From: Chloroflexota bacterium
Lineage (GTDB): Bacteria > Chloroflexota > Dehalococcoidia > Lucifugimonadales > Australimonadaceae
Assembly: GCA_038109085.1 (NCBI GenBank)
Contig: JAYNIL010000005.1
Span: 11,869 to 35,868 of the forward strand
Direction of reading: 5' to 3'
Length of the DNA: 24,000 nt
The translations under genes and the position numbers were made by a program. Within the stretch, counting starts at the first letter, position 1. Each line of letters begins with the position of its first letter. The notes below the pieces were generated by a model. The model ran no database searches. It was not told where the DNA came from and saw only the letters and a list, made by a program, of their open reading frames with translations. This document shows, piece after piece, positions 1,625 through 23,956 of the stretch.

Positions 1625-1825
1625 GCGCTTCCTCCTGGCCTGTTGGGCGTTCGTGGGCACGGCCCGTGCGGGCGCGCCTAGTCTAAGCAAAAGAGGCGAG
1701 CTTTGGCGATGCGCCTCTCGCGTGGCGTCCATTGACGGGCCCCGGGGGCGGTGATACACCCCTGGCGCCCTCAGGGGCAGCAACAAACGCAACGCTGCGC
1801 CGCGCGGGCGCGCTGGAGGGAACGC

Positions 1826-2617: not shown

Positions 2618-2727
2618 ATGGCAGGCCCCATCCGCATCGAGCGTGACGGCCCCGTCTTCGCGCCTCGCTGGGCGCTCAATGTGGGGCCGGTAGCCCCGTT
2701 CGTGCTACATCCGTTCACGGCGGGGCT

Positions 2728-2756
2728 CTGGCACCGGCCGGGCGCGCCGCTATAAT
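2728..2756 (+). promoter_or_regulatory. Sigma70-like promoter CTGGCA-N17-TATAAT placed for a leaderless E1alpha transcript
   Basis: TATAAT sits at 2751-2756 and the A of ATG 2763 is 7 nt downstream of the -10 element. There is no SD between them (ccgccc). The -35-like CTGGCA is at 2728-2733. Confidence 0.45.
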
Positions 2757-2762
2757 CCGCCC

Positions 2763-4789: not shown

Positions 4790-4813
4790 TTTTGCGTGAG
4801 ATGAGCTAGCCCC

Positions 4814-8750: not shown

Positions 8751-9452
8751 ATGCCCGCCGTCCGCGAACTCCTTGAGCTCCAGGGTATCGACGTTGAGCT
8801 GGCCGCCGGGCGCAGGCGCCTGGCGCAGATCGCCGAGGCGCTCGCCGATGACCAGGAGGTGCGCGCGCTTCGCGCCGAGGCGGTGCGCCTCACCAAGGCA
8901 GCCGAGGGCGTGGACGGGCGCCAGAAGGAGCAGGAGGAGGCCATCGCTTCCCTCTCGGCGCGCATCGAGGCGGCTGAGACCAGGCTGTTCGGCGGCACCG
9001 TCACAAGTCCCCGCGAGCTCACGGACCTGCAGACCGACATCGCCATGCTCCAGCGCCAGCGCGGCGAGCACGAGGACGTGCTGCTGACGGTGCTGGAGGA
9101 GGCCGAGGCGGCCCAGAAGGCGCGCCGGCGAGCAATGGGCACTTACAAGAAGGCCAATACCGAGCGCGAGGCGCAGACCGAGACGCTCCGGGACGAGCAA
9201 TCAGCACTCCAGGCCACGTTGGCGGGTCAGGAGGCGGCGCGGGCTACATGCACCGCCGCTCTCCCGCCCGCAGAGCTGGGCCTGTACGAGCAGGCGCGCA
9301 AGGCCAACGGCGTGCGCGGGGCCGCCCGCATGCGCAACGGCACCTGTGAGAACTGTCGCGTCGGCCTGCCCACCCGCCTGGCCCAGGAGGTACGCACCTC
9401 CCCCAATCCCGTCCGCTGCCCCTCTTGCGGGCTGATTCTGCTGGACGCCTGA
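8751..9452 (+). CDS. COG1579-type coiled-coil protein with C-terminal C4 zinc ribbon
   Basis: 233-aa ORF. Contains a long Ala/Glu/Arg/Gln-rich coiled coil, then CENCRVGLP...CPSCGLIL (CxxC-N21-CxxC). Confidence 0.8.
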   Translation: MPAVRELLELQGIDVELAAGRRRLAQIAEALADDQEVRALRAEAVRLTKAAEGVDGRQKEQEEAIASLSARIEAAETRLFGGTVTSPRELTDLQTDIAMLQRQRGEHEDVLLTVLEEAEAAQKARRRAMGTYKKANTEREAQTETLRDEQSALQATLAGQEAARATCTAALPPAELGLYEQARKANGVRGAARMRNGTCENCRVGLPTRLAQEVRTSPNPVRCPSCGLILLDA

Positions 9453-10834
9453 TGCGCGCCCTTGGCTACTTCACCATCGAGCAGGGGCCGGAAACGGGCC
9501 CGCGCGGGGCCAAGACCCTCGCGAATGCCTTCCAGCGCTATTGCGGCGAGGAGCGCCACCAGCCCATCGCCACCTACCACGACGTGGACGGCTCCGACGC
9601 ACGCCCGCGCTGGACTGAGATGGTGGAGGGGATCCGCGCCAAGGGTGCGGGTTACCTGGTGGTGGTGCCCCATGCCGGGCACCTGGGTAAGTCCCTGGAG
9701 GAGCAGGTGGGCCGGGTTCTGGAGCTGGACCGGCTCAACTGCTCGGTGGCCTGCACCGATGCGGAGTGGCCCGACCCGCTCCAGAATGCGCTGCACCTGC
9801 ACGACACGGGTTCGGCGTCCTCGCGCCGTGGCGAGCGCATCCGCCAGGCGATGCGGGCCAAGGCGGCCAATGGGCTGGGTCTCGGCAAGCCGCCCTACGG
9901 CTACCGGCTGCTGTGGGACGGGTCGTTTGCCGTGGTGCCCCAGGAGGCCGAGGTGGTGCGGGAGATATTCCGCCTCTACGGCGAGGAGGACGGCGGCGGC
10001 GTGCGAGCCATCGCCCAGGAGCTGAACCGCCGTGGTCTGCGCACCCGATCGGGCAGGGCGTGGAGCATGGTCACCGTGCGCGACCTGCTGCGCAACACTG
10101 CCTACATCGGAACGTACCGCCGCTTCGGCCTGCGCATTCCCTCAACCTACCAGGCGCTGCTGAGCCCCGCCGAGTTCCGCAAGGTGCAGGACCGCATGGA
10201 CGCGCGTAGCCCCGGCCGCCGGCACGCCAAGGCTGAGCCGTTCCTGCTCTCTGGGCTGCTGTATTGCGGGCACTGCGGCCAGCGCATGCTGGGTGTGGTG
10301 CGCCGCCAGAGCTGGCAGCGCAAGGGGTTCGGGCGGGTGCGGGGTGAGTACCGCTACTACCAGTGCCAATCGCGCATCAACCTGGGCAAGTGCGCCTACC
10401 GCACCACCCGCGCTGCGCCGCTGGAGGAGACGGTGCTCTCCCAGGTGCGCGAGCTGATGCCCGAGGAGCGAGCGCTGGAGGCCTCGGACGGGCAGGGGCT
10501 CGCCGCCGACGGCATGGCCAAGGCGGACGCACGGCTGCGCTCGTTGGACAAGCGCGCCGTTGAGCTGGTGCGCCAGGCCGCCACGGGCGCAGCGCCACTG
10601 GCTCAGCTACGCGCTGGCCTGTTGGGCGTTGAGCAGGAGCGCCGTGCCCAGCGCACGCGCCAACAGCGCATGGCGGCGGGCGAGAACGGCGTGCGCGCCC
10701 TTATGGAGGAGCAGCGCGACAAGCTCCACTACCTGTGGGAAGACATGGACGTCGCCGAGCGCCAGGAGGCCCTGCGCACCCTGGTGGAGAAGGTCGTGGT
10801 GAAGGACGGTGCAGCACGGGTGGTGCTGCGCTAG
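9452..10834 (+). CDS. Large serine recombinase homolog (resolvase-like + recombinase + zinc-ribbon + coiled-coil) with substituted catalytic residues
   Basis: ORF 9425..10834. The likely start is ATG 9452, overlapping the upstream TGA (TGATG). The recombinase domain (GKPPYGYRL...VVREIFRLY...AIAQELNRRGLRTRSGRAWSMVTVRDLLRNTAYIGTY) and zinc ribbon (LLYCGHCGQRM...YRYYQCQSR...GKCAYR) are clear. The N-terminal domain reads MRALGYFTIEQG and AGHLGK where YxRVSTxxQ and DRLSR are expected. Confidence 0.8.
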   Translation: MRALGYFTIEQGPETGPRGAKTLANAFQRYCGEERHQPIATYHDVDGSDARPRWTEMVEGIRAKGAGYLVVVPHAGHLGKSLEEQVGRVLELDRLNCSVACTDAEWPDPLQNALHLHDTGSASSRRGERIRQAMRAKAANGLGLGKPPYGYRLLWDGSFAVVPQEAEVVREIFRLYGEEDGGGVRAIAQELNRRGLRTRSGRAWSMVTVRDLLRNTAYIGTYRRFGLRIPSTYQALLSPAEFRKVQDRMDARSPGRRHAKAEPFLLSGLLYCGHCGQRMLGVVRRQSWQRKGFGRVRGEYRYYQCQSRINLGKCAYRTTRAAPLEETVLSQVRELMPEERALEASDGQGLAADGMAKADARLRSLDKRAVELVRQAATGAAPLAQLRAGLLGVEQERRAQRTRQQRMAAGENGVRALMEEQRDKLHYLWEDMDVAERQEALRTLVEKVVVKDGAARVVLR

Positions 10835-11309: not shown

Positions 11310-12347
11310 CTACTCCACACCCAGTTCTGCACGTACCAGCGCGGTGCCCGCCACCAGCGCCTGGAGCTTGCGGAAGGCGACCTCGCGCGGCAGGTACTTC
11401 ATGCCGCAGTCGGGCGCGGGAATCAGGCGCTCTGGCGGCACGTACTTGAGCGCGTTGCGCAGCCGTCCCGCCACGGTCTCCGGCGTTTCCGGCGTCAGGT
11501 CGTTCAGGTCCAGGACGCCCAGGATGATGGTCTTCTCGCCCAGCTCGCGCATGATGGACAGATCCAGTCCCGACTGGGCTGACTCGATGGCTATCTGCTG
11601 CACGTTGGCCTCGGCCAGCTCCGGCAGGAACGAGTAGCCGGAGGGGCGCTCGTGGACGATGTGCGCGTAGCCGAAGCACAGGTGCACCGCAGTGGTGCCC
11701 TGCACGCCCTCCAGCGCCCGGTTGAGCGCCTTTACGGCATACTCGCGCGCCTTGTCCGGCCGCGCCTGCATGTAAGGCTCGTCCAGCTGCACCACGTCGG
11801 CGCCCGCCGCGAACAGGTCGCGCATCTCCTGGTTCACGGCCTCGGCGTAGTCCATGGCCGCGGCCTCGTCGCTGTCGTAGTGGTCGTTCTGCGCCTGCTG
11901 GGTCATGGTGAAGGGGCCCGGCAGCGTGATCTTCACCTGCCGGTCGGTGTTGGCCCGCAGGAAGCGCACGTCCTCCACCTCGCGGGGTGCGATGCGGCGT
12001 ATGGGCCCGCTGATGCGCGGGACGGGATTAGGGTGTCCGGTGCGGTCCAGCGCCGTGCCGGGGTTCTTCACGTCGACACCGTCGAGGGAGTTGGAGAAGC
12101 GGTTGGAGTAGCTCTCCCGGCGCTGCTCGCCGTCGCTGATTATGTCCACCCCCGCGCGCTCCATGTCGCGTATCGCCAGGAGGGTGGCGTCGTCCTGCGC
12201 CTGCGCCAGCCATTCGGGCGCCACGCGCCACAGTTCGCTCGCCCCCACGCGGGGCGGCAGGCGCTTGCCCAGGGCCGCACGGTCCACCAGCCACTCCGGC
12301 TGGGGGTAGGAACCGACCACCGTCGTGGGCAGGAGCCGCTCGGCCAT
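11310..12347 (-). CDS. Cobalamin-independent methionine synthase family protein, short (MetE C-terminal-domain-only) form
   Basis: ORF 11310..12461. The preferred start is ATG 12347 (GGAGGTG SD, 5-nt spacer), giving MAERLLPTTVVGSYPQPEWL... Zn-ligand contexts VHLCFGY and PDCGMK are present. Stop is TAG. Confidence 0.85.
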   Translation of the reverse strand: MAERLLPTTVVGSYPQPEWLVDRAALGKRLPPRVGASELWRVAPEWLAQAQDDATLLAIRDMERAGVDIISDGEQRRESYSNRFSNSLDGVDVKNPGTALDRTGHPNPVPRISGPIRRIAPREVEDVRFLRANTDRQVKITLPGPFTMTQQAQNDHYDSDEAAAMDYAEAVNQEMRDLFAAGADVVQLDEPYMQARPDKAREYAVKALNRALEGVQGTTAVHLCFGYAHIVHERPSGYSFLPELAEANVQQIAIESAQSGLDLSIMRELGEKTIILGVLDLNDLTPETPETVAGRLRNALKYVPPERLIPAPDCGMKYLPREVAFRKLQALVAGTALVRAELGVE

Positions 12348-12424
12348 CAGCGCACCTCCGGCGGGGGCACTAGGCCTTCCCGCTCTCTCGCATGAACCAT
12401 ACACGCAGCGGGGCCCACGCAGCA

Positions 12425-12533
12425 TGAGGCCCGCAGGCACACCGCGGAGAGCAGGGGCCACCGCCCACCCACATCCCTCATCGAGGCGGGCGGTGGCAGG
12501 GGAAAGGTGTCGCGGGGCGCGCTGCGGGCCTCA
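12425..12533 (-). other. Structured intergenic RNA element: 12-bp long-range helix enclosing a 12-bp hairpin
   Basis: On the minus-strand transcript, UGAGGCCCGCAG (12533-12522, including the heliorhodopsin TGA) is perfectly complementary to CUGCGGGCCUCA (12436-12425). Inside it, CCACCGCCCGCC (12496-12485) pairs with GGUGGGCGGUGG (12469-12458). That pairing has one G-U on this strand, which would be an A-C mismatch on the other strand. Confidence 0.35.
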
Positions 12534-13304
12534 GCCCGTCGGGGCCAGCGTTGCCCCGAAAACCTGCCAGGCCAGCGCCGACTTGGCGGTGAGGCTCAGG
12601 AGGATGTAGGTGGACTCACCGAACAGGTAGGAGCGCCACGGCCCAACCCGCCGGTACTGGAGCACCATGTTCACCGCGAAGGCGTTGAAGAAGGCGAAGA
12701 GCGAGAAGAAGATCGCGTACACGAAGGCCGGAGGCTCCGCCGCCACGCCAGGGCTCCACAGGTAGATGGCGATGGCGGCCCACGGCGCCGCGCCCACCAG
12801 CACGCCGAAGTTATAGGAGAGCCAGCGCGGACGTCCGGGCGACTCGTAGTGCTCCATCAGCAGGCCAAACAGGATCATCCCTGCGTTGGCGGCCCCCAGG
12901 CCCACCAGCGCGGCCACATCGCCGATGCCCGTGAGCAGAGCGATGAGCAGCACCATGAGCGTGGAGCTCACGGAGTACTCGATCCAGCGCGCGTAGTTGC
13001 GGCCCTTGGCCAGGTTCCCGGTGTACCAGCCGAACACCCCCGGCAGCACCAGCACCGCGTGGGCGGCGGCGGAGAGCAGCAGGAAGCCCGCCACGCCCCA
13101 CGCCAGCGAGGCATCGAACAGGTGCGTCACGGTGGGCTCCCCCACGCCGGGCGGGCCGCTCATGAAGGTGGCGAACACCGGTAGGGTGAACTCCGTCGCC
13201 AGGGCGAGCACCACCACGGCCTGGGCCAGGTGGAACGCGCCCATCACCCCGTTATACAGGCGCAGGCGCCCCTGGGCCCGCTGCGTTATCGTCGTGGCGG
13301 TCAT
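12531..13304 (-). CDS. Heliorhodopsin (7-TM retinal protein)
   Basis: ORF 12531..13370. The preferred start is ATG 13304 (GAGGAGGA SD, 6-nt spacer), giving 257 aa. It aligns along its full length with heliorhodopsin 48C12 as I recall it. Matching segments are LYNGVMGAFHLAQAVVVLALATEFTLP, SGPPG, ARWIEYSVSSTLMVLLIALLTGIGDVAALVGLGAANAGMILFG, FVYAIFFSLFAFFNAFAV and YILLSLTAKSALAWQVFGATL (Schiff-base Lys). Confidence 0.9.
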   Translation of the reverse strand: MTATTITQRAQGRLRLYNGVMGAFHLAQAVVVLALATEFTLPVFATFMSGPPGVGEPTVTHLFDASLAWGVAGFLLLSAAAHAVLVLPGVFGWYTGNLAKGRNYARWIEYSVSSTLMVLLIALLTGIGDVAALVGLGAANAGMILFGLLMEHYESPGRPRWLSYNFGVLVGAAPWAAIAIYLWSPGVAAEPPAFVYAIFFSLFAFFNAFAVNMVLQYRRVGPWRSYLFGESTYILLSLTAKSALAWQVFGATLAPTG

Positions 13305-13366
13305 CCTCGTCCTCCTCGTTCTCACGCCCATCGCGTTCATCGTACCGACCAGCGGCCAAGCTGCCC

Positions 13367-14839
13367 TCATGGGGCAACTTGAGCATCGTCAACCCCTGCA
13401 GCAGCATCAATCTCCTCCGCCCGGCGCACCAGTGAGTGCGCCATGCCGTTGAATACGAATCGGTGCACACCGAGCAGCACAGCCCAGTAAACAACTCCGG
13501 ACAGACCTTTCGGAGCCCACCAAGAACGCTGGCGCAGCACCGACCCGCCGTCCGGGCCCCGCTCAACCTCCATTTCCAACCACGCCTCGCCGGGCAGGCG
13601 CATCTCGGCGCGCAACCGCAGCAATCGGCCCGGCTGGACGGCCTCCACGCGCCAGAAGTCCAGCTGTGCGCCGGGCTCGAGGGCAGGGCGGGGGTGGCTT
13701 GTGCGTCGCAGACCCGGCCCGCCCACCAGCCGGTCCAGGGCCCCGCGTAGCCGCCAGCCAAAATCCCAGTACCAGCCGTTGGCACCGCCTACTGAGGCGA
13801 TGGCTTCGAATAGCCGCTCCGGCGGGGCCATGCAGCGCATCGAGCGGTGCTCCACTATCAGCCCGCGGGAGGACTGGGTGCGCAAGGTAAGCGCACCCAG
13901 GGCTGGCATTGGCTCGCTAGCCCCGAAGGCCGGAGGCCGCAGCCCGTCCAGCGCCACCTGCACCGCCTCCTCGTACCCCAGGGGCCGCACGCTGGGGAAG
14001 AGCGCTGCCGTGTCATTGGGTTCGCGCACCACCACCTCGTTCCGCAGCCCCTCTACGATGTGTTTGGCGAACCCGGCGCGCAGGGGTGTGACCAGCCGCA
14101 CCCAGTAGGAGGAAAGGCGCGGGGTCAGTACCGGCACCCGCACCATCCGCCGGCGGAGCCCGCGCACGCTAGCATAGCGGGTCATCATCTCACCATATGT
14201 GAGCACCTCACTGCCGCCCACCTCCACCACGCGGTGCCCCGCGAAAGAGACATCCATACCCTTGACCAGGTAGGTGAGCATGTCGTCGAGGCCGATGGGC
14301 TGGACCCGTGTGTAGACCCAGCGGGGACACACCATGACGGGCACCCTTTCAGTCAGGTAGCGCACCATCTCGAAAGGCAGCGAGCCTGCGCCGACCACGG
14401 GGCCCGCTCGCAGCTCCAGCACCGGCACGCCCGCCTCGGCGAGCGCCTCGCCCGTCTCGTGACGAGACCGCAGATGCGGGCTGAGCGAGGGGCCGGGGGC
14501 TCCCAGAGCGCTCAGATACACGATGCGGCTAACCCCCGTGGTGGCAGCGGCCGTGGCGAAGGAGCGGGCCGCGTCCAGGTCCCGTTGGTGAAAATCGCTC
14601 GCCCCGGCGCCCATGCTGTGCACCAGGTAGTAGGCCGCGTCTATTCCCTCCAGAGCGCGTGCCACCGTCGCCGCCTCGCGGACGTCACCTTGGTGCACTT
14701 GCACCTGTGAGCCCCAGGGTGCGTGCACCAGGCCGGAGGGGTCACGGGTGATCACGCTCACCTCATGCCCCGCTTCCAGCAGCAGCGGCGTCAGCTTCCC
14801 GCCTACGTAGCCCGTTGCGCCCGTCACTAGAACCCGCAT
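13367..14839 (-). CDS. Atypical SDR (NAD(P)H-binding, NmrA/epimerase-like) fused to a C-terminal DUF2867 domain
   Basis: 490-aa ORF. N-terminus is MRVLVTGATGYVGGKL (Rossmann GxxGxxG). C-terminus has GANGWYWDFGWRLRGALDRLVGGPGLRR...DFWRVEAV...LRAEMRLPGEAWLEMEV, typical of DUF2867. SD AAAGGTGA lies 7 nt upstream. Its TGA overlaps an upstream in-frame ATG of the heliorhodopsin ORF (ATGA at 13367-13370). Confidence 0.85.
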   Translation of the reverse strand: MRVLVTGATGYVGGKLTPLLLEAGHEVSVITRDPSGLVHAPWGSQVQVHQGDVREAATVARALEGIDAAYYLVHSMGAGASDFHQRDLDAARSFATAAATTGVSRIVYLSALGAPGPSLSPHLRSRHETGEALAEAGVPVLELRAGPVVGAGSLPFEMVRYLTERVPVMVCPRWVYTRVQPIGLDDMLTYLVKGMDVSFAGHRVVEVGGSEVLTYGEMMTRYASVRGLRRRMVRVPVLTPRLSSYWVRLVTPLRAGFAKHIVEGLRNEVVVREPNDTAALFPSVRPLGYEEAVQVALDGLRPPAFGASEPMPALGALTLRTQSSRGLIVEHRSMRCMAPPERLFEAIASVGGANGWYWDFGWRLRGALDRLVGGPGLRRTSHPRPALEPGAQLDFWRVEAVQPGRLLRLRAEMRLPGEAWLEMEVERGPDGGSVLRQRSWWAPKGLSGVVYWAVLLGVHRFVFNGMAHSLVRRAEEIDAAAGVDDAQVAP

Positions 14840-14939
14840 GGATAGGTCACCTTTCGTCCGGACCTGGCACCCGTCGTGGCCGGTGCCAGCCTCAACTCAT
14901 GTCTGCATGGTATACGTGGGGCGTTGGGCCCTTTCGGGT

Positions 14940-15098
14940 CCCAATAAATCCGAAGATCAACTACGCAGCGAGGCTATGCCCTCAGGAGAATGTTATCCAA
15001 GCTGGTTTGTTCGCATTGATGTGTTTTGATTGAAACAAATAGGAATTATGTGTATAAAAAAATCCACAGTCAAGTCCTGGGCGTCGTAAGGAGTCAAC
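14940..15098. promoter_or_regulatory. AT-rich divergent control region between the SDR-DUF2867/heliorhodopsin operon and the B12-XRE regulator
   Basis: This is by far the most AT-rich stretch of the window. It contains inverted repeats TGTTT-N6-AAACA (15022-15037) and TTTGTT...AACAAA (15006-15011 / 15034-15039), and ATGTGT twice (15019-15024, 15048-15053). A weak minus-strand promoter candidate is TTGGAT-N18-TAGCCT (15000-14971). Confidence 0.45.
15030..15058 (+). promoter_or_regulatory. Strong sigma70-like promoter TTGAAA-N17-TATAAA for the B12-XRE regulator
   Basis: TTGAAA is at 15030-15035 and TATAAA at 15053-15058, with exactly 17-nt spacing. It is followed ~30 nt later by AAGGAG (15088-15093) and ATG 15099. 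The TGTTT-N6-AAACA inverted repeat overlaps the -35 element. Confidence 0.55.
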
Positions 15099-15976
15099 AT
15101 GCCAATTTCCTCCCACCGCCAACTCCCTTGCCTCACCAACCCGCTCGTCGTCGCCGACGCTACGAACGTGACAGGGGTGATGAAACGGGCCGTCGATTCC
15201 AACCCGCGCATGGAGGCTACATACGTGGATCTCCTGTGTCCGGCGATATAGGTGGTGGGTGAGCGTTGGGCGCCAGGGGCGCCATCACTCCGGAGCACCT
15301 CTCTACGGACCCAGCCCGGCGTCGAATGGAGTCGCTGCGTGAGCGCGTCCCCACTGCCGCGAGCATCGGTCGCTCTGTGCTGGTGGGGGTGGTGCAGCCG
15401 GAGCAGCAGGAGATGGGCGCGCGTATGGTTGCGGAACTGCTGGTCCTAGACGGCTGGTCAGTACATGTTTCGGCCAACCTGCTTGCGCAGGAGTTTGCCA
15501 CCCACGCCCAGTCCCTTTCTCCCGATCTAGTGGTCCTGTCCGTGTTGCTGGAGGGCTCCGCCCCCCAGGCCCGGCGCACAGTGGGTTTACTGCGTGAGAG
15601 GACGCCGGGCACCCCGGTGTTGGTGGCGGGGTTATCCGGACAAGAAATCAGCGCTGATGCCCACGCAGGTGACGAACGTGAGGTGCGTTGGCTCGCCCGC
15701 GACCTGGCGGGCACCTCAGCAAATGAGTACAACCTTGAGGCATTGCTGACTTGCGTAGGAAACGTAGAGCTCGATGCGCGCTGCGCGCGCGGCTGGGAAC
15801 GACAACAGCTGGCCCAGGCGGTGGGCATAGACCGGGCGTATTTGTCGGGATTGGAGAACGGGCGGAAGAATCCCACCCTGGGTATCCTTCTCCGGGTGGC
15901 TGCGGCGCTCAAGGTGCCGGTGGCACGGCTGATGGAGGAGAGGATACCAGTGGGCGGTACACTTTCCCGAAACTGA
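15099..15976 (+). pseudogene. CarH/LitR-like B12-binding module (helical bundle + Rossmann B12 domain) fused to a C-terminal XRE-type HTH; reading frame interrupted
   Basis: ATG 15099 with a near-ideal SD opens a 50-codon frame: MPISSHRQLPCLTNPLVVADATNVTGVMKRAVDSNPRMEATYVDLLCPAI. That frame hits TAG at 15249-15251 and continues as VVGERW. The rest (track ORF 15266..15976, TTG start) is in another frame: ...GAITPEHLSTDPARRRMESLRERV...SVLVGVVQPEQQEMGARMVAELLVLDGWSVHV...PDLVVLSVLL...VLVAGLSG, then the HTH GWERQQLAQAVGIDRAYLSGLENGRKNPTLGILLRVAAALKVPVARL. Joined, the two pieces reconstitute a B12-binding_2-like bundle (PAl..vGerW....EH). Confidence 0.55.
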
Positions 15977-16180
15977 TTGACGGGTTTCCCATCGCGGATG
16001 TGAGCCTCATGAGAGCAGCGGAACAAACACAGATGGCCCGGCTGGCGGCCAGGTTCTAAGGCAAACACCCCCTGTTGTAAGTGCCCGCCGGAGAGGGCGT
16101 CACGCAGGTGCGGATCGAGTTAGAGCGAGCTCGGTCGTAGGGATCTCACCGGCTCAGGGGGATCAGAGTGAGGAGTTCGA

Positions 16181-17494
16181 ATGAGCACGTGCCGAGAGCG
16201 TGAACTGGAGAGGCGGGCGACGGGGAGGCGAATCGCCGTGGTGGGTGGCGGTATCAGCGGCATTGCTGCGGCGCTGCGCGCCCGGGATAGTGGGCACGCG
16301 GTGACGCTCTTCGAGGCGGAGCCAATCTTGGGTGGTCACGCGCGCACGCTCTCCGTGGAGAGCGCGGATGGCCCGAGCAGCCTGGACACCGGCTTCCTCG
16401 TTTATAACGAGGCGACCTACCCCGGCTTCACCGGATTCCTCCAGCGGCTGGGGGTGCAGACACAGCGTTCGGACATGTCCTTTGGCGCCAGTTGCCCACA
16501 GCATGGGTTCGAATACGGGAGCCGTGGGCTGCGCAGCATGCTTGCCCAGCCGTCCAACCTGCTGCGCCCCGGCAGGGTGCGCATGTTGGCGGACTTCCTG
16601 CGTTTCTACCATGCGAGTGGGGCGGCGCTCCGTGAGCCCGCAGCAGCACCCGCCACCTTGGGTGGGCTGCTGGCCGATGGGTACGGCAACGAGTTCCGGG
16701 ACCACTTCTTAGTGCCGCTGATCTCCGCGGTTTGGTCTATGCCCGCAGGGCGTGTTGGGGACTTCCCTCTGGCGTTCCTGCTCCGCTTCCTGGCCAACCA
16801 CGGGCTGCTCTCAGTGGGCGGACGGTTGCCCTGGCGCACTGTGACCGGGGGCTCAAGGTCCTACGTCGATCGCGCTGCTGTGCTGCTGGGTGACGGGGTT
16901 CGCCTGGGGACCCCGGTGCGTACAGTGCGCCGTGACAGGTTAGGGGTCAGCGTGGTGAGCGGTTCGGGAACGGAGCGATTTGACGCGATCGTGCTCGCCA
17001 CCCACGCCGACGTTTCGCTTCGCCTGCTGGAGCGTCCGTCGTCGGTGGAGCGACGCGCACTAAAGGCGCTGGCGTACTCGCCCTCCCGGGTGGTCACCCA
17101 CACCGACGCGGGGCTGATGCCCCGCCGGCGCGCGGCGTGGTGTTCGTGGAACTACCGTTCAACATCCTGTGGCGATGGCGATTCTGGCGTGTCGGTGACC
17201 TACCATCTGAACCGGCTCCAAGGATTGAAGGTTCGGCAGAACTACTTCGTTTCGGTGAACCCCAGCAGTGAGCCTGCGCCGGGGACGGTGCTGGACGAGA
17301 CAGTGATGTCCCACCCGCTTTACACAGAGGCCTCGGTGGGTGCGCAGGCTGCGTTGCGGTCGGTGGGTGGCGCGTTGCGGACCGCCTACGCAGGGGCCTA
17401 CCTGGGCCACGGCTTCCACGAGGACGGCTACCGCTCCGGCGTCGAGGCGGTCGACGCATTGGCCGGCTTGACCGCGTTGGTGGGGGCGGCCTGA
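16181..17494 (+). CDS. FAD/NAD-binding amine-oxidase / phytoene-desaturase-like oxidoreductase (COG2907 type)
   Basis: 437-aa ORF with GAGGAG SD. Dinucleotide motif is RIAVVGGGISGIAAALRA...VTLFEAEPILGGHA. It is the usual partner of DUF1365. Its stop overlaps the next start (TGATG at 17492-17496). Confidence 0.85.
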   Translation: MSTCRERELERRATGRRIAVVGGGISGIAAALRARDSGHAVTLFEAEPILGGHARTLSVESADGPSSLDTGFLVYNEATYPGFTGFLQRLGVQTQRSDMSFGASCPQHGFEYGSRGLRSMLAQPSNLLRPGRVRMLADFLRFYHASGAALREPAAAPATLGGLLADGYGNEFRDHFLVPLISAVWSMPAGRVGDFPLAFLLRFLANHGLLSVGGRLPWRTVTGGSRSYVDRAAVLLGDGVRLGTPVRTVRRDRLGVSVVSGSGTERFDAIVLATHADVSLRLLERPSSVERRALKALAYSPSRVVTHTDAGLMPRRRAAWCSWNYRSTSCGDGDSGVSVTYHLNRLQGLKVRQNYFVSVNPSSEPAPGTVLDETVMSHPLYTEASVGAQAALRSVGGALRTAYAGAYLGHGFHEDGYRSGVEAVDALAGLTALVGAA

Positions 17495-18240
17495 TGGACG
17501 CACCGCTGCTGCTCACCGGCACGCTGACCCACCAGCGCTCTGGCCCTGCCGCCGGTGGGTTCTCCCACGCAACGCGCTACCTGCTCACAGACCTGGCCTC
17601 ACCCCCCTCCCGCCGATGGGGCCCACTATGGGGTGGGGAGGGTCTGGGGCTCTACGGCCTGCGCTCGCAGCATCTGTGGGACGGGGCCACTGGGTTCGCG
17701 GCCATCCGTAAGGGTCTCATCGGGTCTGGTGAGCGGGTGCTGCTGCTCACTCAGCCTCACCTGCTGGGCTATGTATTCAACCCCCTCTCGCTCTACTTGG
17801 TGGTGGAGGACGGGCCCCCGGTGGAGCGCGCCCGCGTGCGCCGAGTGGTGGCCGAGGTGAGCAACCGCCACGGCGGCCGCCACCGCTATGACCTCACCGC
17901 AAAAGCCCCGCTGCCGGGCCGGTTCGAGGCGTCCTTCTCCAAGGAGTTCTACGTCTCGCCGTTCCAACCGATGGAGGGTGAGTACCGTCTAGAGCTGACC
18001 TTCGGGGGGGAAGAGCTGAGAGTGCAAGTCAGCTTCCAGGGATTGGGAGGGGAGGGGCTGGATGCCCGGCTGAGCCTGCATGCGGAGCCCTTCACCGGCA
18101 ACGCGCTGGCCCGCACAGCGCTGCGTCAGCCTCTCACCCCCTGGGCCACCACCGCTAACATCTACGGGCACGCGGTAAGGCTGGCCCTGCGGGGCGCACG
18201 CTACCGGCGGCCATCCGAACGGGAGCAGCACGGTGGCTAG
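17494..18240 (+). CDS. DUF1365 family protein
   Basis: 248-aa ORF with GTLTHQRSGP..GFSHATRYLLTDL, LLTQPHLLGYVFNPLSLYLV, AEVSNRHGGRHRYDL and KEFYVSPFQPMEGEYRLEL, matching the DUF1365 pattern. Confidence 0.8.
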   Translation: MDAPLLLTGTLTHQRSGPAAGGFSHATRYLLTDLASPPSRRWGPLWGGEGLGLYGLRSQHLWDGATGFAAIRKGLIGSGERVLLLTQPHLLGYVFNPLSLYLVVEDGPPVERARVRRVVAEVSNRHGGRHRYDLTAKAPLPGRFEASFSKEFYVSPFQPMEGEYRLELTFGGEELRVQVSFQGLGGEGLDARLSLHAEPFTGNALARTALRQPLTPWATTANIYGHAVRLALRGARYRRPSEREQHGG

Positions 18241-19006
18241 GCGCAGGGTTTGGCGGGGCCAGCACGTGTGGGTCGTGGGCGGCGGCAGTGGCATTGGGCG
18301 CGGGGTCGCCGCGGCTCTCGCTGGTCGAGGGGCAGCGGTGACTGTGAGTGCACGGTCGGCGGACGCGCTCCGCCACCTTGCCGCGGAGGTAGCGGACGAC
18401 GGCGGGGCGGTTTTCCCGCTCCCTCTTGACGTAGGGGACGTCCTCGCCCTGCACGCCGGATGGGAGCGACTTTGCGCCGATCGCGGCGTGCCGGATGCGG
18501 TGATCTACTGCGCCGGTGCCTGGGAACCCGCCTCCGTGGTCAAGCTCGACTACGCTCTGGACACGCAGGTGTCGGCCAACTTCACTGGACTCGTGCGTGT
18601 GGCGGCGTTGGTTGTCCCAGCGATGCGCGAGCGTGGCGAGGGACTGTTGGTGGGGTTCTCCTCCGCCAGCGCTCTGCTGGCCTTGCCCCGTGCCGAGATA
18701 TACGGAGCGACCAAGGCCGCGGCCACTTACTTCCTGCGCTCCCTACGTTTGGACCTGCGCCGTTCGGGGGTGCGGGTGGTGACGGTGCACCCGGGGTTCG
18801 TACGCACCCCACTGACGGAGCACAACGATTTTGCAATGCCCGCGCTTCTGGAGCCGGAGCAGGCGGTGGCGGCCGTGCTCAGGGGCATCGAGCGAGGGCG
18901 TACCCAAGTGGACTTCCCTGGCAGGCTTCTCTGGCCCATCAAGCTCGCCGGTGCGCTCCCCCGTCCTGTGGGTGAGTGGCTCATCGCGCGTCTATTCAGG
19001 AGGTAG
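18233..19006 (+). CDS. Short-chain dehydrogenase/reductase
   Basis: 257-aa ORF. GTG 18233 overlaps the DUF1365 stop by 8 nt. Contains VVGGGSGIGRGVA and the catalytic YGATKAA. Confidence 0.8.
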   Translation: MARRRVWRGQHVWVVGGGSGIGRGVAAALAGRGAAVTVSARSADALRHLAAEVADDGGAVFPLPLDVGDVLALHAGWERLCADRGVPDAVIYCAGAWEPASVVKLDYALDTQVSANFTGLVRVAALVVPAMRERGEGLLVGFSSASALLALPRAEIYGATKAAATYFLRSLRLDLRRSGVRVVTVHPGFVRTPLTEHNDFAMPALLEPEQAVAAVLRGIERGRTQVDFPGRLLWPIKLAGALPRPVGEWLIARLFRR

Positions 19007-19008
19007 AC

Positions 19009-19440
19009 ATGGCCCGCTACACAGCCGTTATCCGGTCGGCGCGCAGCGCCTTCGACACCTTTGCCTATATGGCGGACTTTACCAACGCGGCCGCATGGGA
19101 CCCCGGCGTACTCGCCGCGCGGCGTCTAGACGAGGGCCCGGCGGCGATCGGGTCCCGGTTCGCCCTCGATTTCCGATTTGGAGGCTCAACCGTTCCACTC
19201 GAGTACAAGATCCTGGCGCTGGAGCCTGGACGTGCGGTCACCCTTCGCGCAGAGCGCCCCGCGTTCATCGTGGAGGACGTGATCACCGTCGAGCCCGACA
19301 GTTCCGGAGCGCTGGTGCGCTATCAGGCCACCATGAGCCTGCGCGGGCCGATGCGGCTGCTGTCCCCGGTGCTGGGATTGGTGTTCCGGCGCGGGGCCGC
19401 CCAGGCGGGTCGCTCGCTGGCTCGGCAGTTGGGAGGGTGA
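19009..19440 (+). CDS. SRPBCC (START/Bet v1/polyketide-cyclase-like) small protein
   Basis: ORF 18976..19440. The preferred start is ATG 19009, 6 nt after AGGAGG, giving 143 aa beginning MARYTAVIRSARSAFDTFAYMADFTNAAAWDPGV, typical of SRPBCC ligand-binding proteins. Confidence 0.7.
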   Translation: MARYTAVIRSARSAFDTFAYMADFTNAAAWDPGVLAARRLDEGPAAIGSRFALDFRFGGSTVPLEYKILALEPGRAVTLRAERPAFIVEDVITVEPDSSGALVRYQATMSLRGPMRLLSPVLGLVFRRGAAQAGRSLARQLGG

Positions 19441-19442
19441 GG

Positions 19443-20792
19443 GTGCCCTCCGCTGCGATCTGGTGGGCCCGAACGGACCTACGCTTGGAGGACAACCCGG
19501 CGTTGGCAGCCGCACTCGCCACCGGGTTGCCGGTCCAGGCAGTTTTCGTCTTAGAACCGGAGTTGTGGGCCCCGGAGCGCACAGGCCCTCACCGGTCGTC
19601 GTTCCTTGCCGATGCCCTCCGGGACTTGCATGCCGCGATTTGCGGTCTGGGCGGTGGGTTAGAGGTCATCCAGGGACCGCCTGCGCGAGCGATCGGGGGA
19701 CTCGCAGTGGCGATGGGGGGCGCTCCGGTCTTCACTCAGGCGGGGCATTCGCCCTATGCACGCCGTCAGGAGGCCGCCGTCGAACGGGCCGCCGGGTTGG
19801 TGCGAGTCCCGCCTGCAGCCGTCGCTGCGCCGGGGGTCATCACCCGGGATGATGGCACCCCGTTCACCTTGTTCGCAGCGTTCCATCGGCGCTGGAACGT
19901 CCGCCTGGGCACACTGCCCGAGCCCGCGCCATCCCCCTTGCCCGGACAGCTGTTGGCCGGTGATGCGGCGGGACTCGCCTCACTCCCCCGCCAGGAGCAG
20001 GGCGCGCGGTGCCCCGCCTCCCGCGTGGAGGCGGGGCACCGCCTCCACCGATTCTCAAGCGGCCCCACGCCCCCTGCACACCGCTACCTCAGAGACCGGG
20101 AGCGATTGGACGGGGCCGGAGGCTCCGCGCTCTCACCCTACCTGCGGTTCGGGCTACTGTCCGGCCTCGAGGTGCTGCGCGCCGGGGTGGCAGCACTCGC
20201 GTCCGCGCCGGCTCGATCCGCTGCCACCAGCGCGGAGGCCTGGTTGCGCGAGAACGCGTGGCGAGAGCACCTCGCGGCGCAACTCGCAGCGTGGCCCCAT
20301 CTCACCCGCGCCAATCACGACGCACGGATGGACCGGATCGCCTGGCGCGATGACCCTGATGGTCTTCGCGCCTGGCAGGACGGACGCACCGGCTACCCAC
20401 CCGTCGATGCGGCGATGCGCGAGCTGTCCGCGAGCGGGTGGATCAGCAACCGTGCCCGGATGCTTGCTGCCTCGTTCCTCGTCAAGCACCTGCTCATCGA
20501 TTGGAGGAAGGGTGAGCGCCACTTCAGGCGCCTGCTAGTTGACGCAGAGCCTGCCGCCAATGCCCTTGGCTGGCAGCAGGTAGCCGGATCAGGGCCCGGT
20601 GCGCAACCATGGTTCCGGGTGCTGAACCCGCTGGCGCAGGCCGAGCGCTTCGATCCGGACAACCGTTGGGTGCGGCGTTGGGTACAGGAAGCAGGTTCCG
20701 CTGAGTCAATCGCCCCACTGGTGGAGCATAGCTCAGCCAGGGAACGCGCGATCAGTGTGTACCGTATGGCCATGCGTGGGGAGAGGAAATGA
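19443..20792 (+). CDS. phr: Deoxyribodipyrimidine photolyase (class I CPD photolyase / cryptochrome family)
   Basis: Only the C-terminal 449 codons of track ORF 18831..20792 are real. GTG 19443 sits 5 nt after GGGAGGG and gives VPSAAIWWARTDLRLEDNPAL. Also present are SPYLRFG, TGYPPVDAAMRELSASGWISNRARMLAASFLVKHLLIDWRKGERHF and DAEPAANALGWQQVAGSG...PWFRVLNP. Confidence 0.9.
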   Translation: MPSAAIWWARTDLRLEDNPALAAALATGLPVQAVFVLEPELWAPERTGPHRSSFLADALRDLHAAICGLGGGLEVIQGPPARAIGGLAVAMGGAPVFTQAGHSPYARRQEAAVERAAGLVRVPPAAVAAPGVITRDDGTPFTLFAAFHRRWNVRLGTLPEPAPSPLPGQLLAGDAAGLASLPRQEQGARCPASRVEAGHRLHRFSSGPTPPAHRYLRDRERLDGAGGSALSPYLRFGLLSGLEVLRAGVAALASAPARSAATSAEAWLRENAWREHLAAQLAAWPHLTRANHDARMDRIAWRDDPDGLRAWQDGRTGYPPVDAAMRELSASGWISNRARMLAASFLVKHLLIDWRKGERHFRRLLVDAEPAANALGWQQVAGSGPGAQPWFRVLNPLAQAERFDPDNRWVRRWVQEAGSAESIAPLVEHSSARERAISVYRMAMRGERK

Positions 20793-21008
20793 ATGGATGA
20801 ATGGTAGTGACATCGGGACGCGGATGGAGAGCGAGCGCCCCCGCATGGGCGTGAGCGCATGCCTGCTGACCCAGCAAGCACCCGCTACAAAGGCGGTCAT
20901 ATGGCCTATGGCTTCCTGCTGAGCACTCTCGCGCCCTAGGACGAGTGGGTGCCGGAAGCCCTCTGTGGTAGCCTCCCGCTGTCACCCCCCCCCGCTGGAG
21001 GTTCGCGC

Positions 21009-21770
21009 ATGCCCCGCTCAGGCCGCCTCTCCGGTCGGGTTGCCCTGGTCACCGGCTCCTCACGCAACTTGGGCCGCGCGGTGGCCCTGGCCCTGGCCGC
21101 CGATGGAGCTGACGTCGCAGCCCACGGCTACACGGACCGGGCGGGTGCCGAGGCGACAGCTGAAGCATCTTTGGCGCTCGGAGTACGCGCGAGTGCGGTT
21201 AGCGCGGACATCGGCGACCCAGCCCAGGTGCACGCCATGGTGGCGCAGGTGGAGCGGGAGCTGGGCCCCGTGGACATCCTGGTCTCTTGCCCCGGCTACC
21301 GGCCAAAAAACAACCCTCTCGCCATAAGCCCGGAGGAGTGGCGCCGGGTGCTGGCCACCAACTTGGACGGTCCATGGTTCTGCGCACAGGCGGTTCTGGG
21401 GGGCATGGCAGAGCGTGGATGGGGACGCGTCATCAACGTGGCGGGTACCGGCGCATGGCTGGGTGAGGAGCGCGCGCCCCACGTGGCGGCGTCCAAGTCG
21501 GGCCTGGTGGGCCTCACCCGCGCGCTCGCTCGCGACTATGCCCACGCCGGGGTTCTGGTGAACCTGGTTTCCCCCGGTTTGCTTCATACCGAGGAGTCGC
21601 CCTACCGCATTCCGGGGCGGGACTACAAGGCCTTCGCCGCCAAGATGCCCACCGGGCGCGTCACCACACCGGAGGATGTGGCCGGGGCCATCGTGTATCT
21701 TTGCCTGCCCGAGCAGCGCGCCATCACCGGCCAGACCCTGCACGTGAACTCCGGGACGTACTTCGGCTAG
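21009..21770 (+). CDS. SDR family oxidoreductase (FabG-like)
   Basis: ORF 20949..21770. The preferred start is ATG 21009 after GGAGG. Contains VALVTGSSRNLGRAVALALA, NVAGTGAW and the catalytic-region HVAASKSG. Confidence 0.85.
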   Translation: MPRSGRLSGRVALVTGSSRNLGRAVALALAADGADVAAHGYTDRAGAEATAEASLALGVRASAVSADIGDPAQVHAMVAQVERELGPVDILVSCPGYRPKNNPLAISPEEWRRVLATNLDGPWFCAQAVLGGMAERGWGRVINVAGTGAWLGEERAPHVAASKSGLVGLTRALARDYAHAGVLVNLVSPGLLHTEESPYRIPGRDYKAFAAKMPTGRVTTPEDVAGAIVYLCLPEQRAITGQTLHVNSGTYFG

Positions 21771-22327
21771 ATCCGGTCTAATGGCTTGTGGGGCATGGGT
21801 GGCAGCTCGGCGCGCACGGCATCGCCGGTACGGATAACGCCGCCGGAGAGCACCACACCCATGATGCCGGCCTTGCGGATGAGACTCCCTTCCGCGTCGC
21901 GGTCCAGCGTCGCGGCCATGAGCCCGCCCTGCACTCCGTTCAGTTGAACGCATGGGTTGCGCAGCCCTGTCACGCCTACCACCGCTTCGCGCCCGATGTG
22001 CAGGCGCGTACCCTGCGGGAGGGAAAGCAGGTCGATTCCTCGGGTGGAGATGTTCTCCCCCATGCTCCCCGCCTCCACCCCGAAGCCGTTCGCTTGGAGT
22101 TCGTCCAGCAGCTCAGCGTGGATCAGGTGCACCTGCCGGTAGTTGGGACGTTCCGGGTCACGGGCCACATGGCTGCGGTGCTGCACCTTCGCCCCTGCGT
22201 GGATGTCGCCCTCTACGCCTAACCCCTCTAGCAGGCGTATCTCGGTCTGCTGGGGCTTGGACATCGTGTGCGCCCCGGAGCGGCACACCGCCACCACGGT
22301 GCCTCTGGCCGATAACTGCTCGCCCAT
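21767..22327 (-). CDS. MOSC domain-containing protein
   Basis: 186-aa ORF with a GGGAGG SD 5 nt upstream. Contains GLGVEGDIHAG, GSMGENISTRGIDL and VTGLRNPCVQL (conserved Cys). Confidence 0.85.
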   Translation of the reverse strand: MGEQLSARGTVVAVCRSGAHTMSKPQQTEIRLLEGLGVEGDIHAGAKVQHRSHVARDPERPNYRQVHLIHAELLDELQANGFGVEAGSMGENISTRGIDLLSLPQGTRLHIGREAVVGVTGLRNPCVQLNGVQGGLMAATLDRDAEGSLIRKAGIMGVVLSGGVIRTGDAVRAELPPMPHKPLDRI

Positions 22328-22562
22328 GCTCGCCTCCCGGCGCGGTGTGCGCTGGGCGCATCATACCCCCGCGTAAAATTGTTGTACGGATCAGCTCACG
22401 GTCAATGCGCGCCAGGTGTTGGGGCTGGGGGCAGGGCAGGACCCGGCGCGGTACGAATACGCCGATAGGTGCGCGCCGGAGAATAGCCGTGTCTAGGCAC
22501 CAATCCGCTCACCCCCCCGGCGCGTATGCGCTATGTGAGGGGCTTTCGCCCGGAGGCGTCCA

Positions 22563-23153
22563 TTGAACCGGCGGGAGGCCCTCACCGACACGGAGCTGGC
22601 GGCGCTGGTGGCCGCGGGTGACGAGGAGGCGCTGGCGGAGCTGTACGGGCGCTACGGGCGCATCGTCTACTCCATGGCCATGAGCTCGCTGCGCGAGCCC
22701 TCCGGCGCCGAGGACGTGACCCAGGAGGTGTTCGCCGCGCTGTGGGTGCGGGCCGGGCGGTTCGACGGTGAGCGGGGGATATTCCGCCACTGGTTCCTGC
22801 ATCTGGCTCACAACCGCATCGTGGATGAGCTGCGACGCCGAAAGCGGGCGGCGCGGTTCGGAGAGGAACTGCCCGACCCGGTATCGGGCGCAGGCCCGGT
22901 GGCCGGGTCGAACACCGCCGACGAGGCGGTGCGAGCGGTGCTCTTCGGCTCGGCGCGTGAGGCGCTGGAGCGCCTGCCGTCCGAGCAGCGCCAGGCTATC
23001 GTGCTGGCCTATCTGGAAGGGGCTACCCAGCAGGAGATATCCCAGCGCACGGGCGCTCCGCTGGGGACGGTGAAGACACGGCTGCGGCTGGGGTTGATGA
23101 AGCTGCGGGCGCACCTGATGCTCCCCCAAGGGACGGAGGGAACGGACGCGTGA
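22563..23153 (+). CDS. ECF-type RNA polymerase sigma factor (SigK-like)
   Basis: 196-aa ORF with a TTG start 6 nt after GGAGG. Region 2 is AEDVTQEVFAALWVRAGRFD...FRHWFLHLAHNRIVDELRRRK. Region 4 is LPSEQRQAIVLAYLEGATQQEISQRTGAPLGTVKTRLRLGLMKLR. Confidence 0.85.
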   Translation: MNRREALTDTELAALVAAGDEEALAELYGRYGRIVYSMAMSSLREPSGAEDVTQEVFAALWVRAGRFDGERGIFRHWFLHLAHNRIVDELRRRKRAARFGEELPDPVSGAGPVAGSNTADEAVRAVLFGSAREALERLPSEQRQAIVLAYLEGATQQEISQRTGAPLGTVKTRLRLGLMKLRAHLMLPQGTEGTDA

Positions 23154-23956
23154 GTGATTCCCGGCAGGAATGGGATGAGCTGCTCCCGGCCTACGCGCTG
23201 AACGCGCTGGAAGGCGAGGAGTTGGAGCGGCTTGAGGCGGCCCTGGAGGCTGACGCCTCGCTACGCGCGCGCCTGGCTGAGTACCTGGAATCCACCACGT
23301 GGCTCGCCGGTGCCTTCTCCCCACTTGCCCCTCCCGCCGCGCTGGAGCCGCGCATCCGCCGGGTGGTGCGCGCACTGCCGGTCTCCCTCTCGGCTCGGCG
23401 CGTTCGCGCCCGGCGCTCATGGCTGCCGTGGGCCGCAGCCGCGGTGCTGGCGCTGGCCGTGGGCGTGCTGGGCGGTGCCACCGCCTTCCAGCTGCACTCG
23501 GTGGACCAGCTCCAATCGCAGATGCAGGACCTGGCCTCTGACGCAGCGCAGACCGAGCAGCGCCTCCAGGAGCAGCGGGAGGTGACGGCGTGGGTGGCCC
23601 AGTCCGCCGTGACCCCGGCGGCGGTGCGCTCCGTGGACAGCTACGCCGAGCCGGACCCCGCGACGGACTACCCCTGGGGGATGCTCGTCACTAAGCCCGA
23701 CGGCTCGCGGGTGCTGATGATGCTCAACCTACCGGTGCTGGCGGCGGGCGAGGTGTACCAGGTGTGGCTGTGGGACGATGCGGGGGAGGCGGCCCGGAGC
23801 GTCGGCCACTTCTGGCCGGATGAGGACGGCTATGCGTTGGCGCATCTGACCATGCCTGCGCTGGACACCATCCACTGGCTAAGCGTGAACCGGGCCAAGG
23901 GAGGCGGGACGGCGCGTCCCTCGGGCGAGCCGGTTCTGGTGGGGACGGTGCGCTAG
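23150..23956 (+). CDS. Membrane-anchored anti-sigma factor (RskA-like)
   Basis: 268-aa ORF with a GTGA overlap onto the sigma gene. Contains the N-terminal anti-sigma helix region (LLPAYALNALEGEELERLEAAL), one TM segment (WLPWAAAAVLALAVGVLGGATAF), and an extracytoplasmic RskA-like domain (VYQVWLWDD...). Confidence 0.8.
   Translation: MSDSRQEWDELLPAYALNALEGEELERLEAALEADASLRARLAEYLESTTWLAGAFSPLAPPAALEPRIRRVVRALPVSLSARRVRARRSWLPWAAAAVLALAVGVLGGATAFQLHSVDQLQSQMQDLASDAAQTEQRLQEQREVTAWVAQSAVTPAAVRSVDSYAEPDPATDYPWGMLVTKPDGSRVLMMLNLPVLAAGEVYQVWLWDDAGEAARSVGHFWPDEDGYALAHLTMPALDTIHWLSVNRAKGGGTARPSGEPVLVGTVR

Follow-up and report, generated by a model that had tools for sequence, protein, structure and literature searches.

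The question raised by this locus is whether a protein in which glutamine stands in place of the cobalt-ligating histidine can be a working B12 photoreceptor. The locus lies on a stretch of 24,000 nucleotides of Chloroflexota DNA (assembly GCA_038109085.1, contig JAYNIL010000005.1, positions 11,869 to 35,868), which is called the window here. In it, a gene at 15099-15976 on the plus strand joins a cobalamin (B12)-binding module to a C-terminal helix-turn-helix (HTH) of the XRE/Cro type. The gene is very probably what remains of a transcription regulator that no longer functions, a pseudogene whose family is CarH-like, carries an XRE domain and is uncharacterised. In effect, the glutamine reflects decay and not an alternative mode of cobalt ligation, because it is joined by a nonsense codon, a frameshift, hits at five other near-invariant positions, a 2.4-fold excess of divergence and compositional decay.

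Reading frames, domains and lesions of the regulator gene

Once joined across its lesions, the relic amounts to about 292 codons, and its assignment draws on Pfam domains, identity to orthologs and synteny. A Shine-Dalgarno sequence (AAGGAG, 15088-15093, plus strand, as read from the sequence) precedes the ATG at 15099 by 5 nt, and GTAAGGAG at this ribosome-binding site is kept at two loci that hold orthologs, L002 and L003. The frame that starts at this ATG runs for 50 codons and then meets an in-frame TAG at 15249-15251, while homologous reading resumes at about 15280 in the -1 frame and ends with a TGA at 15974-15976. In the joined product of 292 residues, Pfam places B12-binding at residues 93-178 (39.6 bits, cut-off 32.1) and HTH_3 at residues 227-276 (49.3 bits, cut-off 23). 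B12-binding_2, at residues 19-78, scores 22.5 bits and falls marginally below its cut-off of 23. On the plus strand of the DNA, these matches correspond to a four-helix-bundle segment at 15153-15331, for which alignments to orthologs also speak, a Rossmann-type B12-binding domain at 15374-15631, and an XRE/Cro-type HTH at 15776-15925, which is also delimited by the family alignment. The three-part order proposed in an earlier note on this DNA is thus borne out by Pfam on the joined protein, with two of the domains above their cut-offs and the bundle just short of it.

As that note had also pointed out, this architecture is unlike that of every characterised CarH or LitR, in which an N-terminal MerR domain binds DNA. 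Pfam gave no MerR match in the joined product, whose DNA-binding domain is the C-terminal HTH_3. Nor is there a globin-like domain of the photocobilin type, as the C-terminal part of the relic is HTH_3 and only the B12 domain aligns to photocobilins, at positions 10-209. In NCBIfam, the CarH equivalog model ranks first, but its score of 39.6 bits, where the cut-off is 400, is best read as resemblance and not as membership.

Intact orthologs, a search for which the earlier note had proposed, do exist. Three proteins of 283 amino acids (P0002, P0003 and P0004) match 97% of the query at 58-59% identity (E 1e-85 to 1e-92), carry the same three domains in the same order as the joined relic, and all read E-Q-H-E-M/L-G and W-x9-E-H, so the histidine is kept. 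P0003 stems from a metagenome-assembled genome (MAG) of Candidatus Australimonas brisbanensis, and the other orthologs from metagenome contigs. Ca. Australimonas brisbanensis is a planktonic estuary lineage of 1.9 Mbp that belongs to the Chloroflexota (Dehalococcoidia, order UBA2963/Australimonadales; PMC11758582). A pattern scan of a genome collection (TQEHLATD, VGTVQPEQ) found only Ca. Australimonas, with patterns that do not match the relic, so that the genome of the window could be missed. The Ca. Australimonas MAG also holds a second copy of the regulator at the end of a contig (L006 7644-8481, JAYQTA010000008.1, called as P0005). This copy is 93% identical at its N-terminus and has many frameshifts, and is either an artefact of nanopore assembly or a second decaying paralogue.

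Alignment with the orthologs resolves three lesions on the plus strand, each of which is a simple change from the ortholog sequence. The first, seen in the codon-level DNA alignment, is the TAG at 15249-15251, where the orthologs have GAG or GAA (Glu). The second is a 4-nt deletion at 15278-15281, placed by DNA alignment and reading frames, which shifts the frame inside the spacer of the W-x9-E-H motif. Relics of this motif are still present as a Trp codon at 15267-15269 and a Glu-His pair at 15293-15298, but they sit in different frames, with the spacer shortened by the deletion. The third is a CAG codon (Gln) at 15407-15409, where the orthologs have CAT or CAC for the cobalt-ligating His of E-x-H-x-x-G. 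The lower-ligand motif of the relic hence reads V-Q-P-E-Q-Q-E-M-G, without the ligand of CarH. Both the presence of lesions within 15099-15976 and the reading E-Q-Q-E-M-G, as given in the earlier note, are therefore correct.

The lesions are real and not errors, because a contig assembled independently (L001, run SRR26337569) carries all three. This contig matches the window over 15055-23225, with 8 substitutions and no gaps in 8171 nt (about 99.9% identity). The window's own allele is absent from the collection that holds L001, which makes these two separate sequences; in the same collection, an exact look-up of the window's 216-amino-acid product found no record. It is hardly credible, then, that sequencing or assembly errors conceal an intact gene. 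Error-prone assemblies do exist in the lineage, as nanopore sequencing underlies the nearest reference MAG, which has the frameshift-ridden second copy at a contig end. Nevertheless, another assembly shows identical lesions despite 8 differences elsewhere, and these lesions consist of two substitutions and a 4-nt deletion, not of homopolymer slips. Errors also do not explain the excess divergence, the drop in GC at third codon positions (GC3) or the loss of invariant residues described below, and they sit ill with flanking operons and housekeeping genes that are intact. Two scans of metagenome collections, one with protein patterns and one with a 22-base DNA pattern, gave no matches, and hence no intact allele in close relatives of the window organism.

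Relaxed constraint along the relic

Conservation was assessed in an alignment of 142 sequences, made up of the window and 141 full-length proteins (138 family representatives plus P0002-P0004). The lower-ligand His is present in 137 of the 142, and Gln occurs in the window alone. The earlier note had concluded that, with this Gln, cobalamin would bind differently or not at all; Gln is not a feature of the protein type, however, as all three intact orthologs and nearly the whole family have His. The bundle is also well conserved, with the Gly and Trp of G-x-x-W found in 135 and 131 sequences, and the Glu and His of E-H in 134 and 129, respectively.

These data bear on the idea of a functional variant photoreceptor that uses Gln for the cobalt-ligating His, binds cobalamin base-on or otherwise, and has its lesions read through by recoding. 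The Gln codon is truly present, and five of the 142 sequences lack His at the ligand position. Yet no other member has Gln there, the closest orthologs keep His, and expression would need both read-through of the TAG and a frameshift. TAG is the stop codon of 12 of the 21 window genes, so that it is an ordinary stop here, and its recoding was rejected. All signs of relaxed constraint weigh in the same direction, and this variant, already largely refuted, has next to no chance of being correct.

Relaxed constraint is seen well beyond the ligand. Of the 25 alignment columns with a conservation of 90% or more, the relic violates six (H104Q, L124V, G125S, P129L, G177A and Q235R), compared with a family mean of 1.1 and one or two in its orthologs. 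In the HTH, a near-invariant Ser-Gln is replaced by Glu-Arg, although the Gln (Q235) is found in 140 of the 142 sequences. In relative-rate tests, the branch of the window has 24-26 unique changes against 9-12 on the ortholog branches, and it exceeds the ortholog in all 137 outgroup comparisons. Overall, the amino-acid divergence of the relic is in 2.4-fold excess. This excess is found in all four segments, namely the four-helix bundle, the Rossmann domain, the linker and the HTH, and the per-domain identities give no sign that the HTH has been selectively retained.

The same contrast appears when the regulator is compared with its neighbours. Its amino-acid identity to L002 and L003 is 58.9% and 57.5%, while these two share 82.7% with each other. 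For heliorhodopsin, the corresponding values are 89.6%, 88.7% and 89.5%, and for the epimerase 79.3%, 78.6% and 84.3%. In general, the flanking genes are 75-96% identical to the ortholog loci, against 58-59% for the regulator. Base composition has drifted as well: the relic has a GC content of 64% and a GC3 of 72-75%, against 67-69% and 78-82% in neighbouring window genes and 72.5% and 88-89% in intact regulator orthologs. Real disabling lesions and relaxed constraint, the two marks of a pseudogene, are thus both observed.

One way in which the gene could retain a role is through a truncated protein. If translation restarted at the TTG at 15266 or the ATG at 15326, the product would comprise the Rossmann and HTH parts without the bundle and the His, and would function as an XRE regulator that needs no B12 and is blind to light. 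Its logic would resemble that of CarA of Myxococcus and of class II LitR, which are precedents for CarH relatives that lost B12 dependence. Both of these, however, are intact, selected and functional, whereas the window gene has a stop, a frameshift and the signs of neutral decay. A frame of 236 codons (15266-15976) does remain open over the Rossmann and HTH parts, a gene caller predicted the 216-amino-acid product in L001, and the HTH keeps 75% identity to the orthologs and most of its conserved residues. By contrast, no Shine-Dalgarno sequence lies 5′ of 15326, and the strong one serves the start at 15099, whose frame ends at 15251. The loss of the near-invariant HTH Gln, together with G177 and P129, and an excess of divergence in all domains and not in the B12 part alone also argue against such a protein, as does the death of both small partner genes (see below). 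Finally, long open frames arise by chance in DNA of 64-69% GC. Continued use of a truncated product is accordingly very unlikely.

On the minus strand, a frame of 283 codons at 15217-16068 covers the pseudogene and is longer than any sense frame. It is most simply read as a by-product of high GC. Because a frame of this length stays open antisense to the gene in GC-rich DNA, the remaining 236-codon sense frame carries no weight.

The family and its cobalamin module

A word-indexed protein search with the repaired protein returned only the three intact homologs and gave a false look of rarity. With an exhaustive profile search, the count rose to 154 representatives at E < 1e-30; 138 of these have the full length (260-330 amino acids) and match the profile from end to end. 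As lower bounds, the family comprises at least 138 full-length clusters at 50% identity and at least 284 clusters at 90% identity, and one cluster is present on 70 contigs, Tara Oceans samples among them. The architecture, which the earlier note had considered unusual, is therefore common. Its members, typically of about 280-310 amino acids, consist of B12-binding_2, B12-binding and HTH_3, and the joined relic shares this domain order and full-length homology. The family is unnamed, and database names are generic: 'methanogenic corrinoid protein MtbC1/DNA-binding XRE family transcriptional regulator', 'MerR family ... light-induced transcriptional regulator', 'cobalamin-dependent protein [Dehalococcoidia bacterium]' or 'helix-turn-helix domain-containing protein [SAR202 cluster bacterium]'. 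Although intact homologs are common, no characterised one was found, and a literature search for XRE or HTH_3 with B12-binding found no study of a protein of this type.

Among solved structures, the family profile is closest to the photocobilins (8j2x/8j2w, E 1e-40), followed by the B12 domain of a MerR-family protein of Chloracidobacterium (8jbs, E 6e-38) and by CarH (5c8a/5c8d, E 1e-24). The HTH part matches the controller proteins C.AhdI and C.BclI and SinR (E 1e-19 to 1e-13). An AlphaFold2 model of P0003, built from an alignment of 68 sequences, has a mean predicted local distance difference test score (pLDDT) of 95.2, and its best matches in the PDB are 8jbs (2.3-2.8 Å, TM 0.80) and 5c8a (2.8 Å, TM 0.82).

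The ancestral protein is inferred to have had a CarH-like cobalamin module followed by a C-terminal XRE HTH. CarH and class I LitR (Thermus thermophilus, Myxococcus xanthus, Bacillus megaterium; PDB 5C8A-5C8F) have the same B12 module of four-helix bundle and Rossmann domain. The likeness extends to the W-x9-E-H and E/D-x-H-x-x-G motifs of intact orthologs, to the fold match of the ortholog model, to an association with carotenoid and photolyase genes, and to an autoregulatory position at a divergent promoter. In contrast to the N-terminal MerR domain of CarH, the DNA-binding domain of this family is C-terminal and of the XRE/Cro type. Sequence similarity to CarH is modest, both for the family profile and for the relic (39.6 vs 400 bits), and the window copy is a pseudogene. 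In addition, the residue that follows the conserved Trp (A58 in P0003) is Ala in the Australimonas orthologs and His in 52 of the 142 family sequences. This position is equivalent to that of His132 in CarH of T. thermophilus, the upper ligand in the light state of CarH. The light-state chemistry of the family may thus differ from that of CarH, because the equivalent His is found in only those 52 sequences.

The closest solved B12 domains by sequence and fold are those of the photocobilins (SasPcob, 8J2W/8J2X; AbDPcob, 8J2Y) and of the MerR protein of Chloracidobacterium thermophilum (8JBS/8JBT), which are reported to be light-responsive (PMC10979010, PMC11796333). Unlike the family described here, photocobilins have a C-terminal, biliverdin-binding globin-like domain, the C. 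thermophilum protein has an N-terminal MerR domain, and neither has an XRE HTH. For the HTH part, the closest solved relatives, C.AhdI, C.BclI and SinR (PDB 1Y7Y, 2B5A, 1B0N), are dimeric XRE repressors that act on inverted repeats overlapping promoters, but these are stand-alone HTH proteins that lack a sensor domain. The architecture class has been noticed already, because the SignatureFinder paper (FEBS J 2024), on fusions of light-responsive cobalamin-binding domains mined in bulk, states that such domains are fused to HTHs at either terminus (PMC11796333). In the text consulted, that paper neither describes, names nor tests the family with a B12 domain and XRE, its heliorhodopsin and photolyase context, or the small partner genes.

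The genomic settings of other members offer further clues. At L014 (3047-12378), the member P0265 lies between a photolyase/DUF1722/epimerase group and a crtE-crtI-crtB-carotenoid synthase-dxs cluster, and at L008 a member is next to a polyprenyl synthase. Carotenoid and photolyase genes form the classic regulon of CarH and LitR, and of the independent hints that light-protection genes are under the control of this family, the L014 cluster is the clearest.

A rival for the mechanism of the family, which is compatible with the window copy being a pseudogene, is that intact members sense cobalamin availability or redox in the dark, as AerR/PpaA-type co-regulators or corrinoid proteins do. This view can point to the JGI family name 'MtbC1 corrinoid protein/XRE regulator', to methyltransferase corrinoid proteins and MetH, which also match the family profile, to several contexts that have no obvious link to light, and to a cobalamin-independent methionine-synthase-like gene adjoining heliorhodopsin. 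Nevertheless, it is rather unlikely. The W-x9-E-H motif of the bundle, which brackets the adenosyl group in CarH, is conserved in the family; it is not known from MetH or MtbC. Furthermore, the best sequence and fold matches are B12 domains that respond to light in experiments, and carotenoid, photolyase or heliorhodopsin neighbourhoods occur in two separate lineages.

The regulatory island and its neighbours

In L002, L003 and L004, the orthologs are found in the position that the relic has in the window, divergent from an open reading frame (ORF) for 51-53 amino acids, an epimerase/DUF2867 gene and heliorhodopsin. On the other side in L003 and L004 are genes for amine oxidase, DUF1365, SDR and Polyketide_cyc2. 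The position that the earlier note had described, divergent from the heliorhodopsin operon and upstream of the photolyase operon, therefore holds and is conserved. In the window, the divergent operon is intact on the minus strand (12531-14839), with epimerase/DUF2867 at 13367-14839 and heliorhodopsin at 12531-13370 (301 bits), and is 79-90% identical to L002 and L003. The downstream operon, on the plus strand at 16181-20792, is also intact, runs from amine oxidase, DUF1365, SDR and Polyketide_cyc2 to photolyase (19443-20792), and is 75-80% identical to L003. In all, about 20 other window genes, housekeeping genes included, are intact.

By contrast, two small genes that adjoin the regulator have decayed with it. 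In orthologs, the heliorhodopsin operon begins with a gene for a Zn-ribbon protein of 51-53 amino acids (CxxC...CxxC; L002 9746-9901, L003 9740-9901), whose sequence is MTNVLLRACPRCAGDV...CLQCGREL and whose Pfam matches are weak. This protein could be a partner of the regulator. Comparison with the ortholog genes places its remnant in the window at about 14847-15000 on the minus strand, where the ATG has become TTG, the first Cys has become TAG (14974-14976) and the third Cys is lost. The second gene is an ORF for 60 amino acids, without a Pfam match, that overlaps the stop codon of the regulator in L003 (10849-11031) and L004 and is translationally coupled to it there. Its remnant in the window, at 15955-16119 on the plus strand (tblastn, 42% identity over 55 amino acids, E 3e-10), has no start codon and contains two in-frame TAA codons (16057-16059 and 16078-16080). 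Because the regulator and both small genes have decayed while the flanking operons are intact, the stretch of 14.85-16.18 kb is a dead regulatory island, flanked on either side by a live operon.

Between the divergent genes lies an AT-rich control region (15030-15073) with overlapping promoter-like elements and a candidate operator, recognised by promoter scan, conservation and reading by eye. It has 39% GC in a window of 69% GC. The scan found a promoter-like site on the minus strand, with TTGACT at -35 (15073-15068), a spacer of 17 nt and CATAAT at -10 (15050-15045). By eye, similar hexamers can be made out on the plus strand, with TTGAAA at 15030-15035, a 17-nt spacer and TATAAA at 15053-15058. 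The two -10 elements are 3 nt apart on opposite strands. As these divergent sites overlap, transcription of the two units would be in competition for the same piece of DNA. L002 and L003 share the conserved blocks TTGnAACA, TATGTGT and ACAGTCAA with the window, which also holds a degenerate inverted repeat, TTGAAACAA / GTGTATAAA. This repeat is best kept in L003 (9932-9960), as TTGCAACAC-N11-GTGTTGTAA, where it spans the promoter elements, and it is a candidate operator, a role that is our reading of the sequence. The repeats that the earlier note had placed at 15006-15058 proved weak: a repeat finder gave nothing significant there, and only a faint TTTGTT/AACAAA is visible by eye. The conserved signal is better explained by overlapping promoter hexamers and a degenerate inverted repeat.

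By analogy with CarH, we infer a similar logic for the family. In the dark, intact members would carry adenosylcobalamin and form oligomers via the B12 module, and their HTHs would then come to lie on an operator that overlaps the divergent promoters of the heliorhodopsin operon and of the regulator/photolyase operon, so that both would be repressed. On illumination, cleavage of the Co-C bond would cause the oligomer to dissociate and allow expression of the photoprotection genes. An intact regulator should thus protect the TTGCAACA-N-TGTTGnAA region specifically in the dark, and it should bind the degenerate site of the window more weakly. There is about an even chance that proteins with a B12 domain and XRE are a distinct class of adenosylcobalamin-dependent photoreceptor-repressors that is common in planktonic Chloroflexota (Dehalococcoidia, SAR202), that the Australimonas lineage has put heliorhodopsin and a photolyase/photo-oxidative-stress operon under B12 and light control with two tiny partners, and that the window records the loss of the whole module with its targets kept.

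Some points weigh against this account of the locus. Both lesion-bearing sequences may stem from one population, and an intact allele could exist elsewhere. Some residual expression of a truncated protein from the 236-codon frame, with an HTH that is 75% identical to the orthologs, may persist. For the family, the binding of adenosylcobalamin, the response to light, the polarity as a repressor and the operator are all predictions, and several members have no obvious link to light in their surroundings, such as those in a succinate-dehydrogenase-like operon in L007 and L013 or with fasciclin in L010.

Further features of the surroundings can be added. Directly downstream of heliorhodopsin, at 11310-12461 on the minus strand, is the cobalamin-independent methionine-synthase-like gene (Meth_synt_2/URO-D), as in L002, which may be relevant to the B12 economy of these small genomes. 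Near the heliorhodopsin cluster there is also a large serine recombinase, both in the window (9425-10834, plus strand) and in L002 (1-471). Between the recombinase and the MetE-like gene, L002 carries a dnaE2/imuB-type cassette and a SRAP gene (897-6200), while the same interval measures 476 nt in the window. Downstream of the photolyase operon, at 22563-23956 on the plus strand, there is a pair of genes for an ECF sigma factor and an RskA-type anti-sigma factor, which are 96% and 88% identical to those in L002. This pair is a candidate alternative regulator of photo-oxidative stress genes.

In this genome, the switch is broken: translation is cut short at 50 codons, what follows is out of frame, the ligand His has become Gln, other invariant residues are lost and the two small genes have decayed. 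Most likely, the flanking light-protection operons are no longer under the control of B12 and light, and are either constitutive or under other regulators, for instance the ECF sigma/anti-sigma pair. The change from His to Gln is not worth pursuing as new cobalamin chemistry, as it belongs to the decay of a pseudogene. What is useful is the family itself, in which a CarH-like B12 module is attached, in the opposite order, to a different DNA-binding domain, and of which intact orthologs with high-confidence models are at hand for tests as green-light switches. It would also tie a B12 photoreceptor to a heliorhodopsin operon through a concrete regulatory connection, at a time when the function of heliorhodopsin is still debated. 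Finally, lineages with an intact regulator (L002, L003) and with a decayed one (the window, L001) offer a natural comparison of heliorhodopsin and photolyase expression after loss of the switch.

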